From the IMG/VR virus record IMGVR_UViG_3300032007_000006, positions 313,360 through 352,419 of that record: 39,060 bases of DNA. The stretch is one strand, 5' to 3'. The DNA comes from a virus (Duplodnaviria > Heunggongvirae > Uroviricota > Caudoviricetes). The notes beneath the pieces were generated by a model. The model saw nothing but the letters and a program-made list of their open reading frames with translations, did no database searches and was not told the DNA's origin. Below are positions 1 through 38,860 of this stretch, piece after piece (positions within the stretch are counted from its first letter, which is position 1; every line of letters starts with the position of its first letter). The translations under genes and the position numbers were made by a program.

Positions 1-205
1 CATACGCATCTTCAAGCCAGTCCATCTGCCAGTCATATTCGCTCTTTGCTTCTCCAGTGTGGGGATCAAGCATCCAGCTTCCAACGGAGGCAATGGTCCA
101 GTCCTTTTTCAGAAGTTCTGGATGCACTGCAGCCATTGCGCTGTAGCTGGCGAAAAACTGCCCTTCAACAACAACGTGGCGGTATTCGCGGTCTAGAATG
201 TTCAT
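1..205 (-). CDS. hypothetical protein (partial, runs off left edge)
   Basis: ATG at 205 with AAAGGAGG SD and upstream promoter; open frame MNILDREYRHVVVEG... to the edge. Confidence 0.7.
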   Translation of the reverse strand, partial: MNILDREYRHVVVEGQFFASYSAMAAVHPELLKKDWTIASVGSWMLDPHTGEAKSEYDWQMDWLEDAY

Positions 206-288
206 CTGTCCTCCTTTGGTTCATTAAAGGCATCATAGCAGAGAACCGATGGCCATGTCAAGAGAAATTTCTGGCCATCGGTTCAACG

Positions 289-4701: not shown

Positions 4702-5166
4702 CTACTTGATATAGATGTGGAAGTCATCCCTGCGGTTGAGGGCCCATGCTTCTTCAGTGTGGGCCGGATCAACTGGATTCTCTTCGCCAAGAGAGACAAT
4801 CTTGATCTTGGAAGGATCAACGCCTTCTTGCACAAGGAAGTTCTCAACGGCCTGAGCACGACGTTCGCCAAGGCCCTTGTTGTAGGTCTTGGAGCCACGC
4901 TCATCTGCATTGCCTTCAACAACAATGGCGATGGACTGCTTCTGCTTCAGAACATGCGCCTTGTGCTTCAGAAGGCACTCATATTCAGGCTTGATCACGG
5001 CACTGTCAAAGTCAAATTTGACAGGTTCTGCAAGGGCACCAATTTCAGAGGCCTTGAGATACTCCTCCTCAGGCACGACAGCGGCGGCCTTCTTGCCGCA
5101 GCCAGCCATGGCCATGCAGGCGATCATCAGAGCAGAGAGAATGAAAAGAGAATAGAAACGTTTCAT
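4702..5166 (-). CDS. Pal/OmpA-C family peptidoglycan-associated lipoprotein
   Basis: Signal peptide with lipobox MAG-C; VKFDFDSA, EGNADERGS, YNKGLGERRA, SLGEENP, NRR motifs. Confidence 0.92.
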   Translation of the reverse strand: MKRFYSLFILSALMIACMAMAGCGKKAAAVVPEEEYLKASEIGALAEPVKFDFDSAVIKPEYECLLKHKAHVLKQKQSIAIVVEGNADERGSKTYNKGLGERRAQAVENFLVQEGVDPSKIKIVSLGEENPVDPAHTEEAWALNRRDDFHIYIK

Positions 5167-5213
5167 GAAACACACTCCTATTAGCCCTAGTTGGGCTGTT
5201 TTTTGACGAAAGT

Positions 5214-9468: not shown

Positions 9469-9488
9469 GCGAAAAGATCAAATTTTTT

Positions 9489-9605
9489 TCACATGCAAGA
9501 ATCGTGCTAGCAGAGACTCTATGCAAGAATCGTGCTAGACGTAATCACATGCAAAAATCGTGCTAGCAGAGACTCTATGCAAGAATCGTGCTAGACGCAA
9601 TCACA
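9489..9605. repeat. tandem repeat: 4 x ATGCAARAATCGTGCTAG at 28-bp period (56-bp unit x2)
   Basis: Copies start at 9493, 9521, 9549 and 9577. Confidence 0.95.
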
Positions 9606-9844
9606 AACGCTGTCAGACAGGACCTTGGACCGTCGTCTAGGACGCTCTCTGCTCGTCTTTCTCGCGTCACGCACACAGAGATACGTCGGACGTTCTAATC
9701 GCGTCCTCCTGTCATCCTCCGCGCTCCTCCGCTATGCTAGCACGTCACGCTAGACAGCGCACGACATGCTCATTCACGCTCATTCGTGCGTCCTATGGCC
9801 GCAGACAGCATCATGACATGCTCTAATGGAATACAGCAGCAGAT

Positions 9845-13191: not shown

Positions 13192-13267
13192 TAAATAAAA
13201 ACGGCTTTGAAAGCAATTGCAGTTGCCTTCAAAGCCTTAACACCAAATCATAGTAGAGGTATGAATG
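13192..13267 (+). promoter_or_regulatory. TAAATA plus two-hairpin leader, copy 1
   Basis: Same layout at 16386-16460 and 37561-37636. Confidence 0.75.
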
Positions 13268-14611
13268 ATGTCTGAAGATACTTATGAAGACAAATTGTCT
13301 GCTGTTGACGCTGCAGAAAGTCGGGAAGCAAGTGAAGAGAAGGAAATGTTTCCTGGATTTCAAGGGTTTCTCTTCACGCCACAGGAATTGGAACGCAATG
13401 CATCGCGAGGATTGATGAAATGCCAATGCATTCAATGTGGCAGAATATTTTTCATTCCAAAAAATCAGATACAGGCAAGAATAAAAGCCCGTCGAACAAT
13501 ATGCTGCTGTTCTGCAGCATGCACAGCACAATATAAAAAAGAACGCAAAAAGTCTTCAAAAAAGGAATACTGCTGCGCTACTTGTGGAAAACATGTTTCA
13601 TCTAATGAATACTATGGTTCTGGCAGATTTTGCTGTCAAAAATGTTCCAATGCGTATAGTTCAAAGTTTGGAAACACTACAGAAAAAAGAAAGCAGAAGT
13701 CAAACAAGTTATTAGAGCATGGAAAGAAAAAGGTAGTTAAGCCTTGCCACAAATGTGGAAAACCAATTGAATGTTCAGAATATGCCAATAATGCACTATG
13801 TGCAGAATGTCGAAAGAAAAAATATAAGAGCCAAGTTAATAGAAATGAAAATGTTAAACAGCAAACTAAACTGCAAAAACTTAATGAAGAAAGCATACTA
13901 TATCAACAAGTTTTAAAACTATATCATTTGTACAACTTTAAAGAAATGAACGAAGTCTTGAAAATAGATACTAGACTTTTAAGAAGTGTTATAAGAAAAT
14001 ATAATGTTCAACAAAATCCAGCATTGCTTCCTGTACAGCAGTTTGGTAGAATAAAATACACAAAACTAATATTAGATATTCAAGACCGTTCTGTCACCTA
14101 TCATGATTTCATTAGAGCAAAACTTATTTTAGAGCATCATTATCATGTTGAAATGATGTCTCCGGAAGAAATAAAGAAAATGTATAATATTGAATATAGC
14201 TGTTTTGATATGTGTCTTAAAGGTGTATTCGGAATAACATTAAGAAACTTGTCAGAAAGTAGTAGAAATTATCATCAAAAGATTGGAACTTACGACAATA
14301 AGACAGAAAAGGAACTCTATTACATGCAATGCGCTTTTCGGTTTCCTCGAAGTGAGTATAGTCGTATTCCTGGATTTGAACTTGTAAACCAATATGGCTG
14401 GTACAAGCCCGCAAAAAATAGATGGTTTGGTGCTACTAGAGATCATATGATCTCTAGAAACTATGGATGGACGCATAAGATTGATCCAGAGATAATACGC
14501 CATCCAGCCAATTGTCAAATCATGCTCTCAACAGACAACTCTTCAAAGGGAGAGAAATGCACTATCACTGTTGAAGAATTAATGGAACGAATAAAGCATT
14601 GGGAAGATTAA
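13268..14611 (+). CDS. putative free-standing HNH-type homing endonuclease with N-terminal Zn-binding repeats (paralog 1)
   Basis: CxxCG...FCxxxC repeats; C-terminal RDHMIS...HPANCQ...DNSSK; AT-rich and opposite strand. Confidence 0.75.
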   Translation: MSEDTYEDKLSAVDAAESREASEEKEMFPGFQGFLFTPQELERNASRGLMKCQCIQCGRIFFIPKNQIQARIKARRTICCCSAACTAQYKKERKKSSKKEYCCATCGKHVSSNEYYGSGRFCCQKCSNAYSSKFGNTTEKRKQKSNKLLEHGKKKVVKPCHKCGKPIECSEYANNALCAECRKKKYKSQVNRNENVKQQTKLQKLNEESILYQQVLKLYHLYNFKEMNEVLKIDTRLLRSVIRKYNVQQNPALLPVQQFGRIKYTKLILDIQDRSVTYHDFIRAKLILEHHYHVEMMSPEEIKKMYNIEYSCFDMCLKGVFGITLRNLSESSRNYHQKIGTYDNKTEKELYYMQCAFRFPRSEYSRIPGFELVNQYGWYKPAKNRWFGATRDHMISRNYGWTHKIDPEIIRHPANCQIMLSTDNSSKGEKCTITVEELMERIKHWED

Positions 14612-14617
14612 AAAAGC

Positions 14618-14644
14618 AAAGAGCGGGATAATCCCGCTCTTTTG
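14618..14644 (+). terminator. terminator hairpin after HNH paralog 1 (possibly bidirectional)
   Basis: AAAGAGCGGGA-TAA-TCCCGCTCTTT. Confidence 0.7.
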
Positions 14645-15213: not shown

Positions 15214-15299
15214 TGGTAGGCGGGGAGGGACTCGAACCCTCAAGGACTTGCGTCCACCAGCTCCTCAAGCTGGCGCGTATACCATTCCGCCACCCGCCC
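15214..15299 (-). tRNA. tRNA-Leu(GAG)
   Basis: Loop TT-GAG-GA, long variable arm, CCA. Confidence 0.93.
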
Positions 15300-15311
15300 A
15301 TAATCTTTGCG

Positions 15312-15419
15312 CGGAAGAGCCATGTTGGCAATACTCTTCCGTTGAGCAGGGTCTGGACTTGAACCAGAAGCCTCCATCATATTGCCTTAGATGGTGCTGA
15401 ACCATTCAGCTTCCCTACC
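15312..15419 (-). ncRNA. tRNA-like RNA with 11-nt anticodon loop and 3' hairpin extension
   Basis: Acceptor, D and T arms intact (15344-15419); no CCA; trailer hairpin 15312-15341. Confidence 0.65.
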
Positions 15420-15427
15420 GAAAATCT

Positions 15428-15841
15428 CTACTTGCTCATTAATTTCCGTATCTGCCTGTCGCTGAGCCATTCTGGACTTGTGAAGCAGTACCAGAGAACC
15501 TTTCTTCCCTTGAAGACCTTGTCCCTCTTGCGAACGTAGTCTTCAACGTACCACATCTTGCCATCCTTGTTCATCCACCATGGATTTGAGACCTCGCGGA
15601 CGCTTTCAACGTCCATCTTCCAGTCTTCCGTCTCATAGTCCACTCTTGGAAGCGGCCTGAACACGAAGCAGTCATCTTCAAGATCAACCAGCCAGCAGGT
15701 AATGGCTCTCTCCTTTGCTATTCTTCTGCAGGACATCCTGCCCTTGGAGCGGAACTTTCTGTGCCAGAACCTCTTGTCCCAGCGTTCCGACTTGCAGGAG
15801 CATATCTGCCCGCATGGATGCGTTCTCCAGCTTCTAGACAT
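15428..15841 (-). CDS. basic hypothetical protein (MSRS-type, paralog of the next gene)
   Basis: MSRS...DKxxWHxxFR...WxMxKDGKxWY. Confidence 0.8.
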   Translation of the reverse strand: MSRSWRTHPCGQICSCKSERWDKRFWHRKFRSKGRMSCRRIAKERAITCWLVDLEDDCFVFRPLPRVDYETEDWKMDVESVREVSNPWWMNKDGKMWYVEDYVRKRDKVFKGRKVLWYCFTSPEWLSDRQIRKLMSK

Positions 15842-16213: not shown

Positions 16214-16292
16214 CTCCTTGCTGAAGATATTTGACCAAAACTCATTGACAAGAGAAAGATAGCACCAGACAGAAAGAATGTCAAGCGAAAAA

Positions 16293-16460: not shown

Positions 16461-17801
16461 ATGTCTAAGACTACTTATGATGGCATTATGCCATCCATTG
16501 ATGATTTCTGTGATTCAGAACCAAGAGAAATGTTTCCTGGATTTCCAGACTTTCTTTTCACCAAGGACGATCTTGATTCCGTTCGTGTACGAGATTTGCT
16601 TGAATGCAGATGCTCTCACTGTGGAAAAACATTCAAGCGATGCAAGGGAGACATTCTGAAAAAGCACTACAGAGTGAACAAGCCTTTAATCTTCTGCAGC
16701 CAGAAATGCTATAATGAACATACAATACTTCTAACTAAAAACAGAAACCATCACGACTACACCTGCAAAACCTGCGGCAGAGAAGTCAAGAAAGATGATT
16801 GGTATGCCTCTGGAATGTTCTGTTCTGAGCAATGTTCCAAAAAATATTCATCAACATTTGCAAACAGCATCGAATCAAGAAAAAAGAAGTCTCAAACAAT
16901 AAAAGAAACTTGTCTTAAAAAGAAAAATCAAATCATAGTTGAACAAAGAAAACGTTATAACGAACAGGCCTCTCAGATCCAATCTCTTCAATCTAAATGG
17001 AATCTTTCAGACATAAGGAAAATACTACACATTAATCACAAAACATTTGAATGCATAGTTAAACGCTTTAATATAGCAGAACATGACCGATATGTTAGCT
17101 TCAGACAATATAAAGTCATTGAACGCTGTCGTATTGCATTAAACAAGCCATTTGAAGATGGAAGCATCACTATTGATGATCTAAAGACTGTACAAAATGA
17201 ATGTCATCGACTAATGTTTGAAGATGACTGGTCTGCCGATGAAGTTTGCAGAAACTATCTGCAAATGGAGAAGCCCAATCCAAAGTTTCTCGAACTGTCT
17301 CTGGGAATAGAACTAAGAAGCCTCAGCATGGCTAGACAGTCTATTCTAAGAAGGAACGGCTACTATGACAACAGAGACGCTGAAGAAGCCTATAGGGCTC
17401 AATGCGAATTCAGGCTGTCATCCAAACTGTATCCATACATTTTTGGATTTGAACTTGTCAAGCTGCATGGCTGGTGTCATCCGATTAAAAATCCCTATGG
17501 AGTCTCTAAGGACCATATGGTGTCTGTCCATTATGGATTCACTCACAACATTGATCCCTATCTCATTTCCCACCCAGCCAACTGCATGTTCATGCTTCAG
17601 TCGGAAAATGCAAGCAAGTGTGAAAACTGCTCAATGACTGTACAGGAACTCATTGAACGAGTGGAATGGTTCAATGAAACCATATTATACAAGGAATTCA
17701 ACCTTGACTTGCTTAGACAGATTAAAATCCGATACAAGCCTTCAAGAAATAGATTCTCTATTCCAGAGATGAATCACTTCGCAGCATTGTCTCTAGTCTA
17801 G
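16461..17801 (+). CDS. putative HNH-type homing endonuclease (paralog 2)
   Basis: EMFPGF shared with paralog 1; Zn repeats; KDHMVS...IDPYLISHPANC...ENASK. Confidence 0.75.
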   Translation: MSKTTYDGIMPSIDDFCDSEPREMFPGFPDFLFTKDDLDSVRVRDLLECRCSHCGKTFKRCKGDILKKHYRVNKPLIFCSQKCYNEHTILLTKNRNHHDYTCKTCGREVKKDDWYASGMFCSEQCSKKYSSTFANSIESRKKKSQTIKETCLKKKNQIIVEQRKRYNEQASQIQSLQSKWNLSDIRKILHINHKTFECIVKRFNIAEHDRYVSFRQYKVIERCRIALNKPFEDGSITIDDLKTVQNECHRLMFEDDWSADEVCRNYLQMEKPNPKFLELSLGIELRSLSMARQSILRRNGYYDNRDAEEAYRAQCEFRLSSKLYPYIFGFELVKLHGWCHPIKNPYGVSKDHMVSVHYGFTHNIDPYLISHPANCMFMLQSENASKCENCSMTVQELIERVEWFNETILYKEFNLDLLRQIKIRYKPSRNRFSIPEMNHFAALSLV

Positions 17802-19372: not shown

Positions 19373-19496
19373 TGCTGAATGAGGTGGGATTTGAACCCAC
19401 GGAACGCCTTCCGTTCAGGATTGCCTAGGATGCTCTGAAAGGCCTGCGCCCTGCGGAAGCTTGTCCGCTGCAATCATCCTGCTCTGCCACTCATCC
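19373..19496 (-). ncRNA. tRNA-Ser-like RNA with large insertion and non-CCA end
   Basis: GGATGAG/CTCATTC acceptor, GTGGG-TTCAAAT-CCCAC T arm, 6-nt loop CAAGCT, ends AGCA. Confidence 0.55.
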
Positions 19497-19506
19497 AGAA
19501 AAATGA

Positions 19507-19974: not shown

Positions 19975-20630
19975 GTTGGGGAAGAGCCACTTCCCCTCCT
20001 AGACCTGGACCACCTGGCTAAGATGTCCTCTCCGTGTCGGCTTGCGGCTGGCTATTGACGGTACCGACTCCGCTGAAGGTGTCATTCTGGACGGGAGCCA
20101 CTTCAGCCTGGACATTCCCGCTTTGCACCCATAGCTCGATTTCATTCACGTTCAGGTTCCGAGCAGTGCCTGAACCCCAGAGCGCCGTCACGGTCTGGCT
20201 GTTTTCCTGCCATTCCTGTGTACTGGGCAGGAAGAATTGCGGACATGTCTCAAACTCTTTCAGTGAGCCATTGTCCGAAATGGCGGGATTTCTCCGGTAT
20301 CCCTAAACGGGGGAGCAAAAGTTCTAAGACTTCTGCGGCAAAGTCCGCTTTGCCCTGTTCGTCCACTCAAATCAAGACATCATCTAGAATAGCCTTGGCA
20401 GGCAAAAATTGTGGACAGCCTTCAAGGGACTCAAACCCTCCTCTGGACAACAGCCTTTCAGCTACCGTCAAGGCGCACTCTGCAAAGTCTGTCCTATTCA
20501 TCCATTGGCCGCATGCTGAAGAGCGCAGGGTTTCGATCCCGTGAACCTCCTCGGCATTCCGATTCGGCTCCTGCCCAATGTTCAATGAACATCCTCAGGT
20601 CATTCAGCATCTTTCCTTTAGGATGAAAAA
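19975..20630 (-). ncRNA. candidate large structured ncRNA (about 650 nt)
   Basis: No convincing ORF; follows a promoter plus boxA leader; many local hairpins; lies in the tRNA array. Confidence 0.45.
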
Positions 20631-23243: not shown

Positions 23244-23320
23244 GCTCTCCGATGGAACTTGAACCCATGCACTTCCCAGCCTAATTGACTGAATGCTCTA
23301 ACCAACTGAGCTACGGAGAG
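23244..23320 (-). ncRNA. tRNA-like RNA with abnormal anticodon arm and no CCA
   Basis: Perfect CTCTCCG/CGGAGAG acceptor, canonical D arm, TTCAAGT T-loop; loop TCAATTAGG. Confidence 0.6.
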
Positions 23321-37636: not shown

Positions 37637-38860
37637 ATGTCTGACAATACTTATAGTTTGGAAACAATCATAGTTTCAAACCCAACTTTTTGCTTTTCCA
37701 TCCAAGAATATCAAAAAGCAAAAGTTAGAGATATGCTTCCTTGCCACTGCATAATATGCAATAAAGATTTTTACACCGAAAAACGACGTATTAATAAGTT
37801 TCTTAACGGTAAAATAAAAAATCTTTATTGTTCTAAACCATGTGCCTTTGAAGCGGCCAAAAAACCTGTAGAAAAGCATGAACCATACTATTGCGAAAAA
37901 TGTGGCAAATTTGTAGACAGTGAACAATATTATGGCAATGGTCGATTTTGCAGTGAACTATGTTCAAGGTCATATGCTTCATCGTTTGTTTCATTAGAAG
38001 ACAAACGAAAAAACTTTATACCAGCAAAAGAAAAGCGTAAAGAAATACAGATACAAAACGCTAAAAATACTCTTAACAAAGAATACAATGATTTAATTCA
38101 TAAATTAGAAAAATGGAATATTTCAGATCTAATAAAATTAAATTTATTCACAAAAGCAAATTATGATAAAATTAAAAAAGAATATGATATATCACAATAC
38201 ACATCAAAATATATTTCAGGTAGAGATGCAACAATCAACTTTTGTAGAAATGTCATTCAAAAACCAATTACAGATGGAAGCATAACAAAATCAGATTTTC
38301 AGAAAATTCAAAATATACTACAAACATTAATAGATGAAAATAAATTTACAGCTTATGAAGTATGTCAAAAATATAACTATACCAATGCTAAACATTCAGC
38401 ATCAGCATTTTTAAAAAATGTTTTCAAATTAAAATTACTTCCTAATGGTGAAGCATTAAAAGCAAGTTATTATAGAAAAAGTGGAAAAAATAAAACAAAA
38501 CACGAACGCTATTACCAAGATACTAGATTTAATATTCCATATAAAATATGGAAATATCTTCCAGGTTGGGATTTATATCTAAAATATGGAACATATAATC
38601 CAAAAACAAATCCAGATGGCGTTGATAAAGATCACATAATTTCTCGTTCATATGGAGAAAAACATAATATAGATCCATATCTTATAAAACATCCAGCTAA
38701 TTGTCAATTTTTACAACATAACATTAATCGTAAAAAATTTACAGATTGCTCATTAACAATAGATGAACTTATAGAACGTGTTCAACTTTTTAATGAGACA
38801 ATTTTAGATCCAGATTTTAATCTGGATACTTTTCCAATAAAAACATTTCATTCATTATAG
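37637..38860 (+). CDS. putative HNH-type homing endonuclease (paralog 3)
   Basis: Zn repeats; DKDHIISR...IDPYLIKHPANCQ...INRKK; very AT-rich. Confidence 0.75.
   Translation: MSDNTYSLETIIVSNPTFCFSIQEYQKAKVRDMLPCHCIICNKDFYTEKRRINKFLNGKIKNLYCSKPCAFEAAKKPVEKHEPYYCEKCGKFVDSEQYYGNGRFCSELCSRSYASSFVSLEDKRKNFIPAKEKRKEIQIQNAKNTLNKEYNDLIHKLEKWNISDLIKLNLFTKANYDKIKKEYDISQYTSKYISGRDATINFCRNVIQKPITDGSITKSDFQKIQNILQTLIDENKFTAYEVCQKYNYTNAKHSASAFLKNVFKLKLLPNGEALKASYYRKSGKNKTKHERYYQDTRFNIPYKIWKYLPGWDLYLKYGTYNPKTNPDGVDKDHIISRSYGEKHNIDPYLIKHPANCQFLQHNINRKKFTDCSLTIDELIERVQLFNETILDPDFNLDTFPIKTFHSL

Follow-up and report, generated by a model that had tools for sequence, protein, structure and literature searches.

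A phage tRNA-like RNA with an enlarged anticodon loop and a complementary 3′ trailer hairpin

The minus strand of the DNA stretch analysed here (39,060 nucleotides, hereafter the window), which makes up the final 39 kb of a virus record of 352,419 bases with a CheckV completeness of 99%, carries 37 tRNA genes and a tmRNA. Within this array lies a sequence that has the outline of a tRNA and is directly followed by a hairpin. The question raised by this locus is whether the sequence corresponds to a decayed tRNA gene or to a tRNA mimic with a function of its own, and what such an RNA would do if its anticodon loop paired with its own 3′ trailer, as a previous sequence-only reading had proposed.

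The RNA and its genomic setting

The virus is a T4-like jumbo phage, with head, tail and replication genes of the T4 type, and its nearest cultured capsid protein, from a Desulfovibrio phage, is 45% identical. Public runs containing DNA of this phage are mostly labelled as bovine gut metagenome. The phage encodes an OmpA/Pal-like protein (window 4702-5175, minus strand) and an outer-membrane beta-barrel protein (L012:14660-15304, minus strand), and these two genes point to a diderm host. Both an RtcB and an Rnl2-type RNA ligase are encoded in the window. In addition, three low-GC ORFs of 407-448 aa (13265-14611, 16461-17801 and 37637-38860, plus strand) are insertions opposed to the direction of the tRNA array; none had a Pfam match over the cut-off, and a single frame in L105 matches all three regions, indicating that they represent one mobile family. 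Four near-identical repeats of ~18 nt, located at ~9480-9610 in an extended non-coding region that precedes strong promoter-like sites, are possibly origin iterons.

The RNA under study extends from 15419 to 15308 on the minus strand and comprises a cloverleaf, a 3-nt linker and a hairpin, with a total length of ~112 nt (Table 1). The parts described in the sequence-only reading were all found at the places assigned to them, on the minus strand, and the cloverleaf followed by the hairpin was the minimum-energy prediction (−41.2 kcal/mol, z = −3.4, with 1 of 200 shuffles as good). The 3′ end of the RNA is probably located at the CGCA tail, ~4 nt past the boundary originally drawn. The RNA belongs to a putative transcription unit headed by a promoter-like site, which includes two small ORFs, the tRNA-like RNA, tRNA-Leu, thioredoxin, tRNA-Ile and a further tRNA-Leu. 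The anticodon of the tRNA-Leu beside the RNA is GAG in the window and AAG in L096 (1611-1697, plus strand) and L132 (~161-246, minus strand), two of the homologous loci described below; A34 is rare among bacterial leucine tRNAs.

Table 1. Features of the tRNA-like RNA and of its neighbourhood, with positions in the window
Feature	Position	Strand	Remarks
Cloverleaf (7-bp acceptor, A8/A9, D arm, 5-bp anticodon stem, standard T arm)	15345..15419	−	
Acceptor strands, 7 bp	15419-15413 and 15351-15345	−	
D arm	15410-15396	−	
Anticodon stem, 5 bp	15394-15390/15378-15374	−	
Enlarged anticodon loop, 11 nt, without U33	15379..15389	−	
GGCAA core, predicted 5′ strand of the loop-loop helix	15382..15386	−	Invariant in 5/5
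T arm, standard	15368-15352	−	
Linker from acceptor stem to trailer hairpin, 3 nt	15342..15344	−	Length 3 in 5/5
Trailer hairpin	15312..15341	−	z = −4.4; 9 bp plus A.G in the window, 10-bp stem in four homologues
UUGCC core, 5′ side of trailer loop, predicted partner of GGCAA	15327..15331	−	
CGCA tail, conserved	15308..15311	−	0/4 columns variable
Promoter-like site, sigma-70 type	16256..16284	−	10/12 consensus with TG; consensus match only
Terminator-like hairpin closing the promoter-headed unit	14618..14642	−	Consensus match only
True tRNA-Leu(GAG), neighbour and comparison gene, separate from the RNA	15214..15299	−	

Regarding canonical tRNAs, the RNA shares the 7-bp acceptor, the 5-bp T stem and the T-loop consensus, whereas it lacks an anticodon loop of 7 nt containing U33 and has neither U8 nor A21 nor a Watson-Crick pair at 1-72. 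The previous description of normal D and T arms was correct for the T arm and not entirely so for the D arm, where positions 8/21 are A/U instead of U/A; this exchange, A8 with U21, was observed in all five sequences compared (the window and four homologues). The first acceptor pair is G.U or U.U in the five, and the anticodon loop measures 10-11 nt (10 nt in two of the four homologues), with no U before GGC in any of them. On the other hand, the tertiary elbow bases A15-U48 and G18G19 are kept in all five sequences, and A9 is retained as well. The variable loop of the cloverleaf has 5 nt. In the window, both the 11-nt loop and the lack of CCA after the acceptor stem were confirmed; by comparison, CCA is encoded in 40 of the 41 tRNAs called by ARAGORN in this genome. 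No U tract was found after the trailer stem, this position being occupied by CGCA in the five sequences, and the hairpin was not listed in a terminator scan.

These features place the RNA outside standard annotation. ARAGORN did not call it at the default cut-off and, at a lowered cut-off, miscalled it as Leu(CAG); a search of Rfam, RF00005 included, assigned it to no family at the gathering threshold. It is single-copy in the jumbo phage genome. Its D-arm type is mostly that of tRNAs for Asn, Arg and Ser, and the comparison did not point to any one of them as a clear parent. Contigs of the RNA run X3 span the unit, and X15 gave none; DNA carry-over being uncontrolled in that run, they were not counted as evidence of expression.

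Other irregular tRNA-like stretches were observed in the window, all on the minus strand. One of them, uncalled, at ~19380-19497, combines a 7-bp acceptor and a standard T arm with a long insertion and an A-GCA instead of an N-CCA end; it resembles a degenerate tRNA-Ser, tRNA-Ser(GCU) being missing from the genome, and also contains GGCAA, predicted to be paired internally. Two adjacent stretches at ~20405-20612 show acceptor-like closing stems and odd T-arm-like hairpins, the first ending in A-GCA, with weak folding z-scores of −0.6 and −0.7. The tRNA-Asn(att) called by ARAGORN at 23244-23320, the sole called tRNA without an encoded CCA, has a 6-bp anticodon stem and a non-standard loop and is probably another pseudo-tRNA. 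Among the other sequences retrieved, a group of loci (L042, L050, L074, L111, L121 and L129/L169) contains tRNA-like RNAs with the same A8-A9 and D arm, irregular 18-nt anticodon arms and mostly no CCA, in which no complementary trailer was noticed, and L062 and L087/L115 contain tRNA-like RNAs with much enlarged anticodon arms and no hairpin downstream.

Homologues, conservation and transfer between phages

Homologues were sought by a metagenome scan with a pattern made of the D arm and the T loop, both the anticodon and the trailer loops being left free. The scan covered 46 of 64 parts and returned 117 stretches, four of which (L070, L096, L105 and L132) are homologous to the RNA, with identities to the window from 96/111 to 103/112 (86-92%). 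The comparison set thus consists of five full sequences, 86-96% alike, with at most 3 kb of each homologue locus examined. Given the coverage of the scan and its D arm and T loop requirement, further members probably exist, and the invariance of both elements among the four homologues is partly forced, since the search pattern demanded them. In Logan contigs, which were chosen without the pattern, few D arm or T loop changes were observed among the rows listed; one loose contig end had a change in the D loop and retained GGCAA.

Searches in other collections gave negative results. Pattern scans of IMG/VR (2, 10, 35 and 44 stretches) yielded, among the matches listed, chance hits or ordinary tRNAs and no homologue, and a scan of 30 of 64 parts of the GTDB genomes (121 stretches) retrieved mostly tRNAs with terminators and, again, no homologue. 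Protein-anchored scans and blastn against named phages and plasmids did not reveal any homologue either. Covariance-model and DNA searches, run on the phage genome itself, on 100 fetched loci and on a selection of viral records, recovered only ordinary tRNAs, with covariance scores of at most 46 bits vs 141-149 for the five members.

The fold of the window was recovered in the homologues, and the substitutions among the five sequences are consistent with it. Standard pairs occupy 183 of 185 pair cells, and 0 of 500 shuffles reached the observed pairing and covariation. Both bases have changed in four pairs, half of them in the anticodon stem and half in the trailer stem, in a set whose relatedness inflates such tests. 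The 18 stem substitutions break only 2 pairs vs 10.4 expected under random placement (P ~0.0002, relatedness ignored). Between the window and L096, the RNA is identical in 98 of 111 positions (88%), the adjacent tRNA-Leu in 65 of 86 (76%) and the four-fold sites of the upstream gene in 25 of 39 (64%).

The distribution of the RNA provided a further line of evidence. L096, L105 and L132 correspond to relatives of the jumbo phage with matching gene order. L070, with 57% GC vs 43% for the jumbo phage and an S24 repressor gene upstream, is, to judge from its sequence, an unrelated, temperate-type phage. Over the 3,055 bases compared, the only DNA match to the jumbo genome is a segment of 110 bases, equivalent to window positions 15416-15306, which spans the cloverleaf, the trailer and the CGCA tail, the homology stopping at 15306. 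In two further studies, contig matches start or stop at the same places and are bordered by L070-like flanks, as compared by eye. Since the unit shared with L070 includes the trailer, the hairpin is part of the RNA, separate from the tRNA-Leu that lies downstream. Terminator hairpins with an identical stem base are found after ordinary bacterial tRNAs, in examples that were selected by pattern and give no frequency, and such terminators may be the origin of the trailer hairpin. Directly 3′ of the homologue, at ~1275-1430 on the minus strand, L070 shows another tRNA-like RNA, whose acceptor stem of 8-10 bp ends in GCCA and whose anticodon arm carries a branched insertion; neither Rfam nor the jumbo genome contained a match to it.

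Altogether, the compensatory changes, a conservation above that of the neighbouring tRNA-Leu and the presence of the unit in an unrelated phage indicate a selected RNA, one that is very probably functional, and agree with the earlier view of a tRNA mimic over that of a decayed tRNA. According to the latter explanation, a decaying tRNA gene would be accompanied by a leftover terminator hairpin and the match between loops would be due to chance. Hairpins do lie within 10 nt downstream of many ordinary tRNAs (132 of 470 in the fetched sequences), and other odd tRNA-like stretches are present in the window. Decay is nevertheless at variance with the compensatory changes and the scarcity of broken pairs, with an RNA better conserved than the adjacent real tRNA, with its transfer as a sharp-ended unit and with the missing U tract, and we regard it as largely refuted and scarcely credible.

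Predicted pairing between the anticodon loop and the trailer loop

The exact 7-nt complement between both loops (TATTGCC vs GGCAATA) noticed in the sequence-only reading is present in the window; the T of 15333 pairs inside the hairpin stem, which leaves 6 nt free for loop pairing, and in the four homologues the complement is restricted to a 5-nt core, GGCAA/UUGCC. In a post-hoc test, a random 14-nt loop gave a 7-nt match in 0.24% of 100,000 draws; a 5-nt match is expected by chance in ~4-6% of draws. None of the 41 real tRNAs of the genome has a 7-nt match in the first 45 trailer bases, and among the 132 ordinary tRNAs followed by a hairpin, a complement of at least 5 nt was found in two cases, both A/U-rich.

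The core pair cells are paired in 25 of 25 cases across the five sequences. Of the trailer-loop columns, none of the five in the core is variable, as compared with four of the six outside it, and the Logan tables contain changes at 15322-15325 and 15332-15333 and, among the rows listed, none at 15327-15331. In one Logan contig, which stops before the trailer, an A to G change at 15382 would allow a G.U pair. The cores are invariant although the search pattern contained neither loop. This invariance is by itself no argument for pairing. Compensatory changes between the loops, proposed beforehand as a check, were absent from the five sequences, in which none of the five pairs of the loop-loop helix varies. 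Conservation of the loops also extends past the cores (AAGGCAAUA), so that contacts with proteins could account for it. The kissing or pseudoknotted structure initially suggested is thus backed by a 5-bp core kept in five of five sequences and by a trailer that travels with the cloverleaf, while base pairs 6 and 7 are not conserved.

The position of the trailer core is relevant in this context. UUGCC occupies the 5′ margin of the loop and abuts the stem, and 5-6 bases, mostly A/U, remain for the return crossing; a loop strand stacked on a stem, with bases crossing back, is the layout of the second stem in an H-type pseudoknot. In a crude toy geometry, which combined ideal helices with L-shape distances assumed to be 58-69 angstrom, closure within a single molecule was reached in 14-48 of 60,000 placements with an 11-nt anticodon loop, in 1-12 with a 10-nt loop and in none with a 7-nt loop. 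Closure in this model only with an enlarged loop would explain the enlargement, and the model does not exclude pairing in a dimer. The five core base pairs are worth about −5 kcal/mol. Taken together, the data support, without proving it, a pairing of GGCAA with UUGCC that is on balance probably real.

Possible function and rival readings

The reading that we favour, with a probability of roughly one in three, is that the RNA acts as an uncleavable tRNA-shaped decoy against tRNA-targeting host defence enzymes. The RNA would be transcribed early from the host-type promoter and cut at its 5′ end by RNase P, and the trailer hairpin would block 3′ trimming, so that the trailer would be retained. 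UUGCC, stacked on the trailer stem, would pair with GGCAA, with the 5-6 remaining loop bases crossing back, and in this way the anticodon loop would be capped and the L shape would become a closed triangle. Anticodon nucleases or other tRNA toxins that recognise the body of a tRNA would bind the RNA and meet neither a free anticodon loop nor a CCA end, and the working tRNAs would be spared. With both working ends blocked and the elbow kept (A15-U48, G18G19 and the T loop), a decoy would be the most economical function.

This proposal rests on context, namely the tRNA array and the RtcB and Rnl2 ligases in the same genome. In the accessible part of PMC7824862, jumbo phages are reported to combine tRNA sets with RtcB and Rnl ligases, and such a context is described, there and in the available text of PMC11555353, as a set of counter-measures to tRNA-cutting defence. 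The latter source, in the same portion, presents retron Eco7 and PrrC as being countered by phage tRNAs, T5 tRNA-Tyr and a phage tRNA-Lys respectively, which share with our RNA the 7/5 acceptor branch and a location in a phage tRNA array behind a host-type promoter. Unlike these tRNAs, the RNA has no CCA or U33 and possesses a 10-11-nt loop and a hairpin, which makes rescue as a working tRNA impossible. The published rescues described in that text work by supplying functional tRNA, which argues against a decoy, a word absent from PMC11555353. A role as a ligase substrate, also put forward in the sequence-only reading, lost weight, given that the unit is also present in the temperate-type phage, where no ligase was found over the 3 kb examined. 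More tentatively, the RNA may represent a new family of mobile phage-borne RNAs whose tRNA body is locked, as a triangle or a ring, by its own 3′ hairpin, and which would provide an RNA-only anti-defence, either neutralising tRNA-targeting immunity or guarding host tRNA-Gly(GCC), and not making up for lost tRNA.

The main rival to the decoy, and the strongest, is that the RNA targets tRNA-Gly(GCC), GGCAA binding the host anticodon loop in trans in the manner of a T-box specifier, so as to shield or hold the tRNA, and the trailer loop copying the Gly anticodon loop as a bait or internal competitor. We consider it doubtful. GGCAA is a glycine codon plus two bases, and the nine tRNA-Gly(GCC) of the fetched loci all have loops starting with UUGCCA, as compared with UUGCCAA at the start of four of the five trailer loops; however, the trailer of L132 reads UUGCCC, GCC is placed at the 5′ edge of a 10-11-nt loop and not in the middle of a 7-nt loop, and a match to UUGCC is automatic given complementarity to GGCAA. 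The hairpin base (C-G, G-C and a following C) is like the acceptor stems of most tRNA-Gly(GCC), but it is also that of the terminator hairpins of ordinary bacterial tRNAs mentioned above. Finally, tRNA-Gly(GCC) was not found in the 99%-complete record, where GGC plus GGU represent 43% of the Gly codons of long ORFs, yet tRNA-Ser(GCU), Val(GAC) and Pro(GGG) are missing from the genome as well. In T-boxes, the specifier loop binds tRNA-Gly through a displayed GGC codon that pairs with the GCC anticodon; here stem I, the antiterminator and a leader position at an amino-acid gene are missing, and the partner sequence lies in cis. Splicing or permutation of the RNA into a working tRNA-Gly was also considered and dropped, as several cuts would be needed and no bulge-helix-bulge was evident.

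It is also conceivable, if unlikely, that the loops pair between molecules, hand in hand as those of phi29 pRNA do, and form dimers or rings that would serve as a scaffold or as a multivalent tRNA-like surface. Sequence cannot separate pairing within a molecule from pairing between molecules; the toy model nonetheless permitted closure of a single molecule, which would account for the enlarged loop and for the constant lengths of linker and stem, and the low energy of five base pairs speaks against association. There is a precedent in ROOL and GOLLD RNAs, which, in the portion of PMC12286853 available, lie near phage tRNA islands and have kissing loops that join chains, one of them first read as intramolecular; both traits would be shared by our RNA if paired, while ROOL and GOLLD are several hundred nt long and not cloverleaves, and our RNA has no Rfam match. 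Equally unlikely in our view is that the loops make separate protein contacts and that their complementarity is incidental, the RNA being a Y-RNA-like partner of an RNA-repair platform formed by RtcB, Rnl2 and a DUF2828/DUF7788 protein. A 5-nt match has a chance of 4-6%, and the jumbo phage encodes both ligases and a 521-aa protein with DUF2828 and DUF7788 (L012:15640-17205, minus strand), called RNA-binding by PHROGs. Its gene is, however, more than 130 kb distant from the RNA, the protein is without a solved Ro60 relative, no TROVE/Ro60 gene was matched in the genome (the control matched in 2 of 14), and the RNA unit occurs in another phage type too. YrlA Y RNAs, according to the part of PMC4201824 accessible, keep the elbow, as our RNA does, and are characterised by a T-AS-D order of arms, a GNCGAAN0-1G motif and, at most 4 kb away and on the same strand, a Ro60 gene; here the arms follow the tRNA order D, anticodon, T, and the Ro60-binding motif had no match in 15291-15430. 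Much less probable is a precursor whose trailer, a temporary lock, would be trimmed and to which CCA would be added, to give an odd translating tRNA that reads frameshifts or missense codons. The 7/5 acceptor and T stems, A15-U48, G18G19 and A9 are all retained, as this would require, but the first pair is G.U or U.U, U33 is missing from a loop of 10 or 11 nt, acceptor pairs 3 and 5 are Watson-Crick in some sequences and wobble in others, and virtually all true tRNAs of this genome encode their CCA.

Other known RNAs resemble the unit in part. Theta ribozymes, in the accessible text of PMC10879173, are structured elements placed directly 3′ of tRNAs in gut phages, a position shared by the trailer; they fold as a nested double pseudoknot and release themselves by self-cleavage from a real tRNA, unlike the single 30-nt hairpin observed here, which follows a non-tRNA body with 12 nt to the next gene (assessed by eye and with Rfam). 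Allo-tRNAs, as described in the available part of PMC5389517, are irregular tRNA genes, some inactive, near conflict systems, and have an 8/4 or 9/3 acceptor branch and a long variable arm, as opposed to 7/5 and a 5-nt variable loop. No account of a cloverleaf capped by its own trailer was found in the accessible portions of open full texts.

Altogether, these results lead us to conclude that the RNA defines a genuine family of phage tRNA mimics whose architecture is new and which, overlooked by standard annotation, had not been annotated before. Its size of ~112 nt makes the pairing, the oligomer state and the decoy idea each quickly testable and, if the cap is real, it would provide a natural self-closing tRNA fold, of interest to structural studies and to the design of RNA. 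The tRNA genes of phages are at present largely read as answers to tRNA-cutting defences; a non-translating RNA, conserved above its real tRNA neighbour and traded between jumbo lytic and temperate-type phages, points to a second, non-translating strategy.
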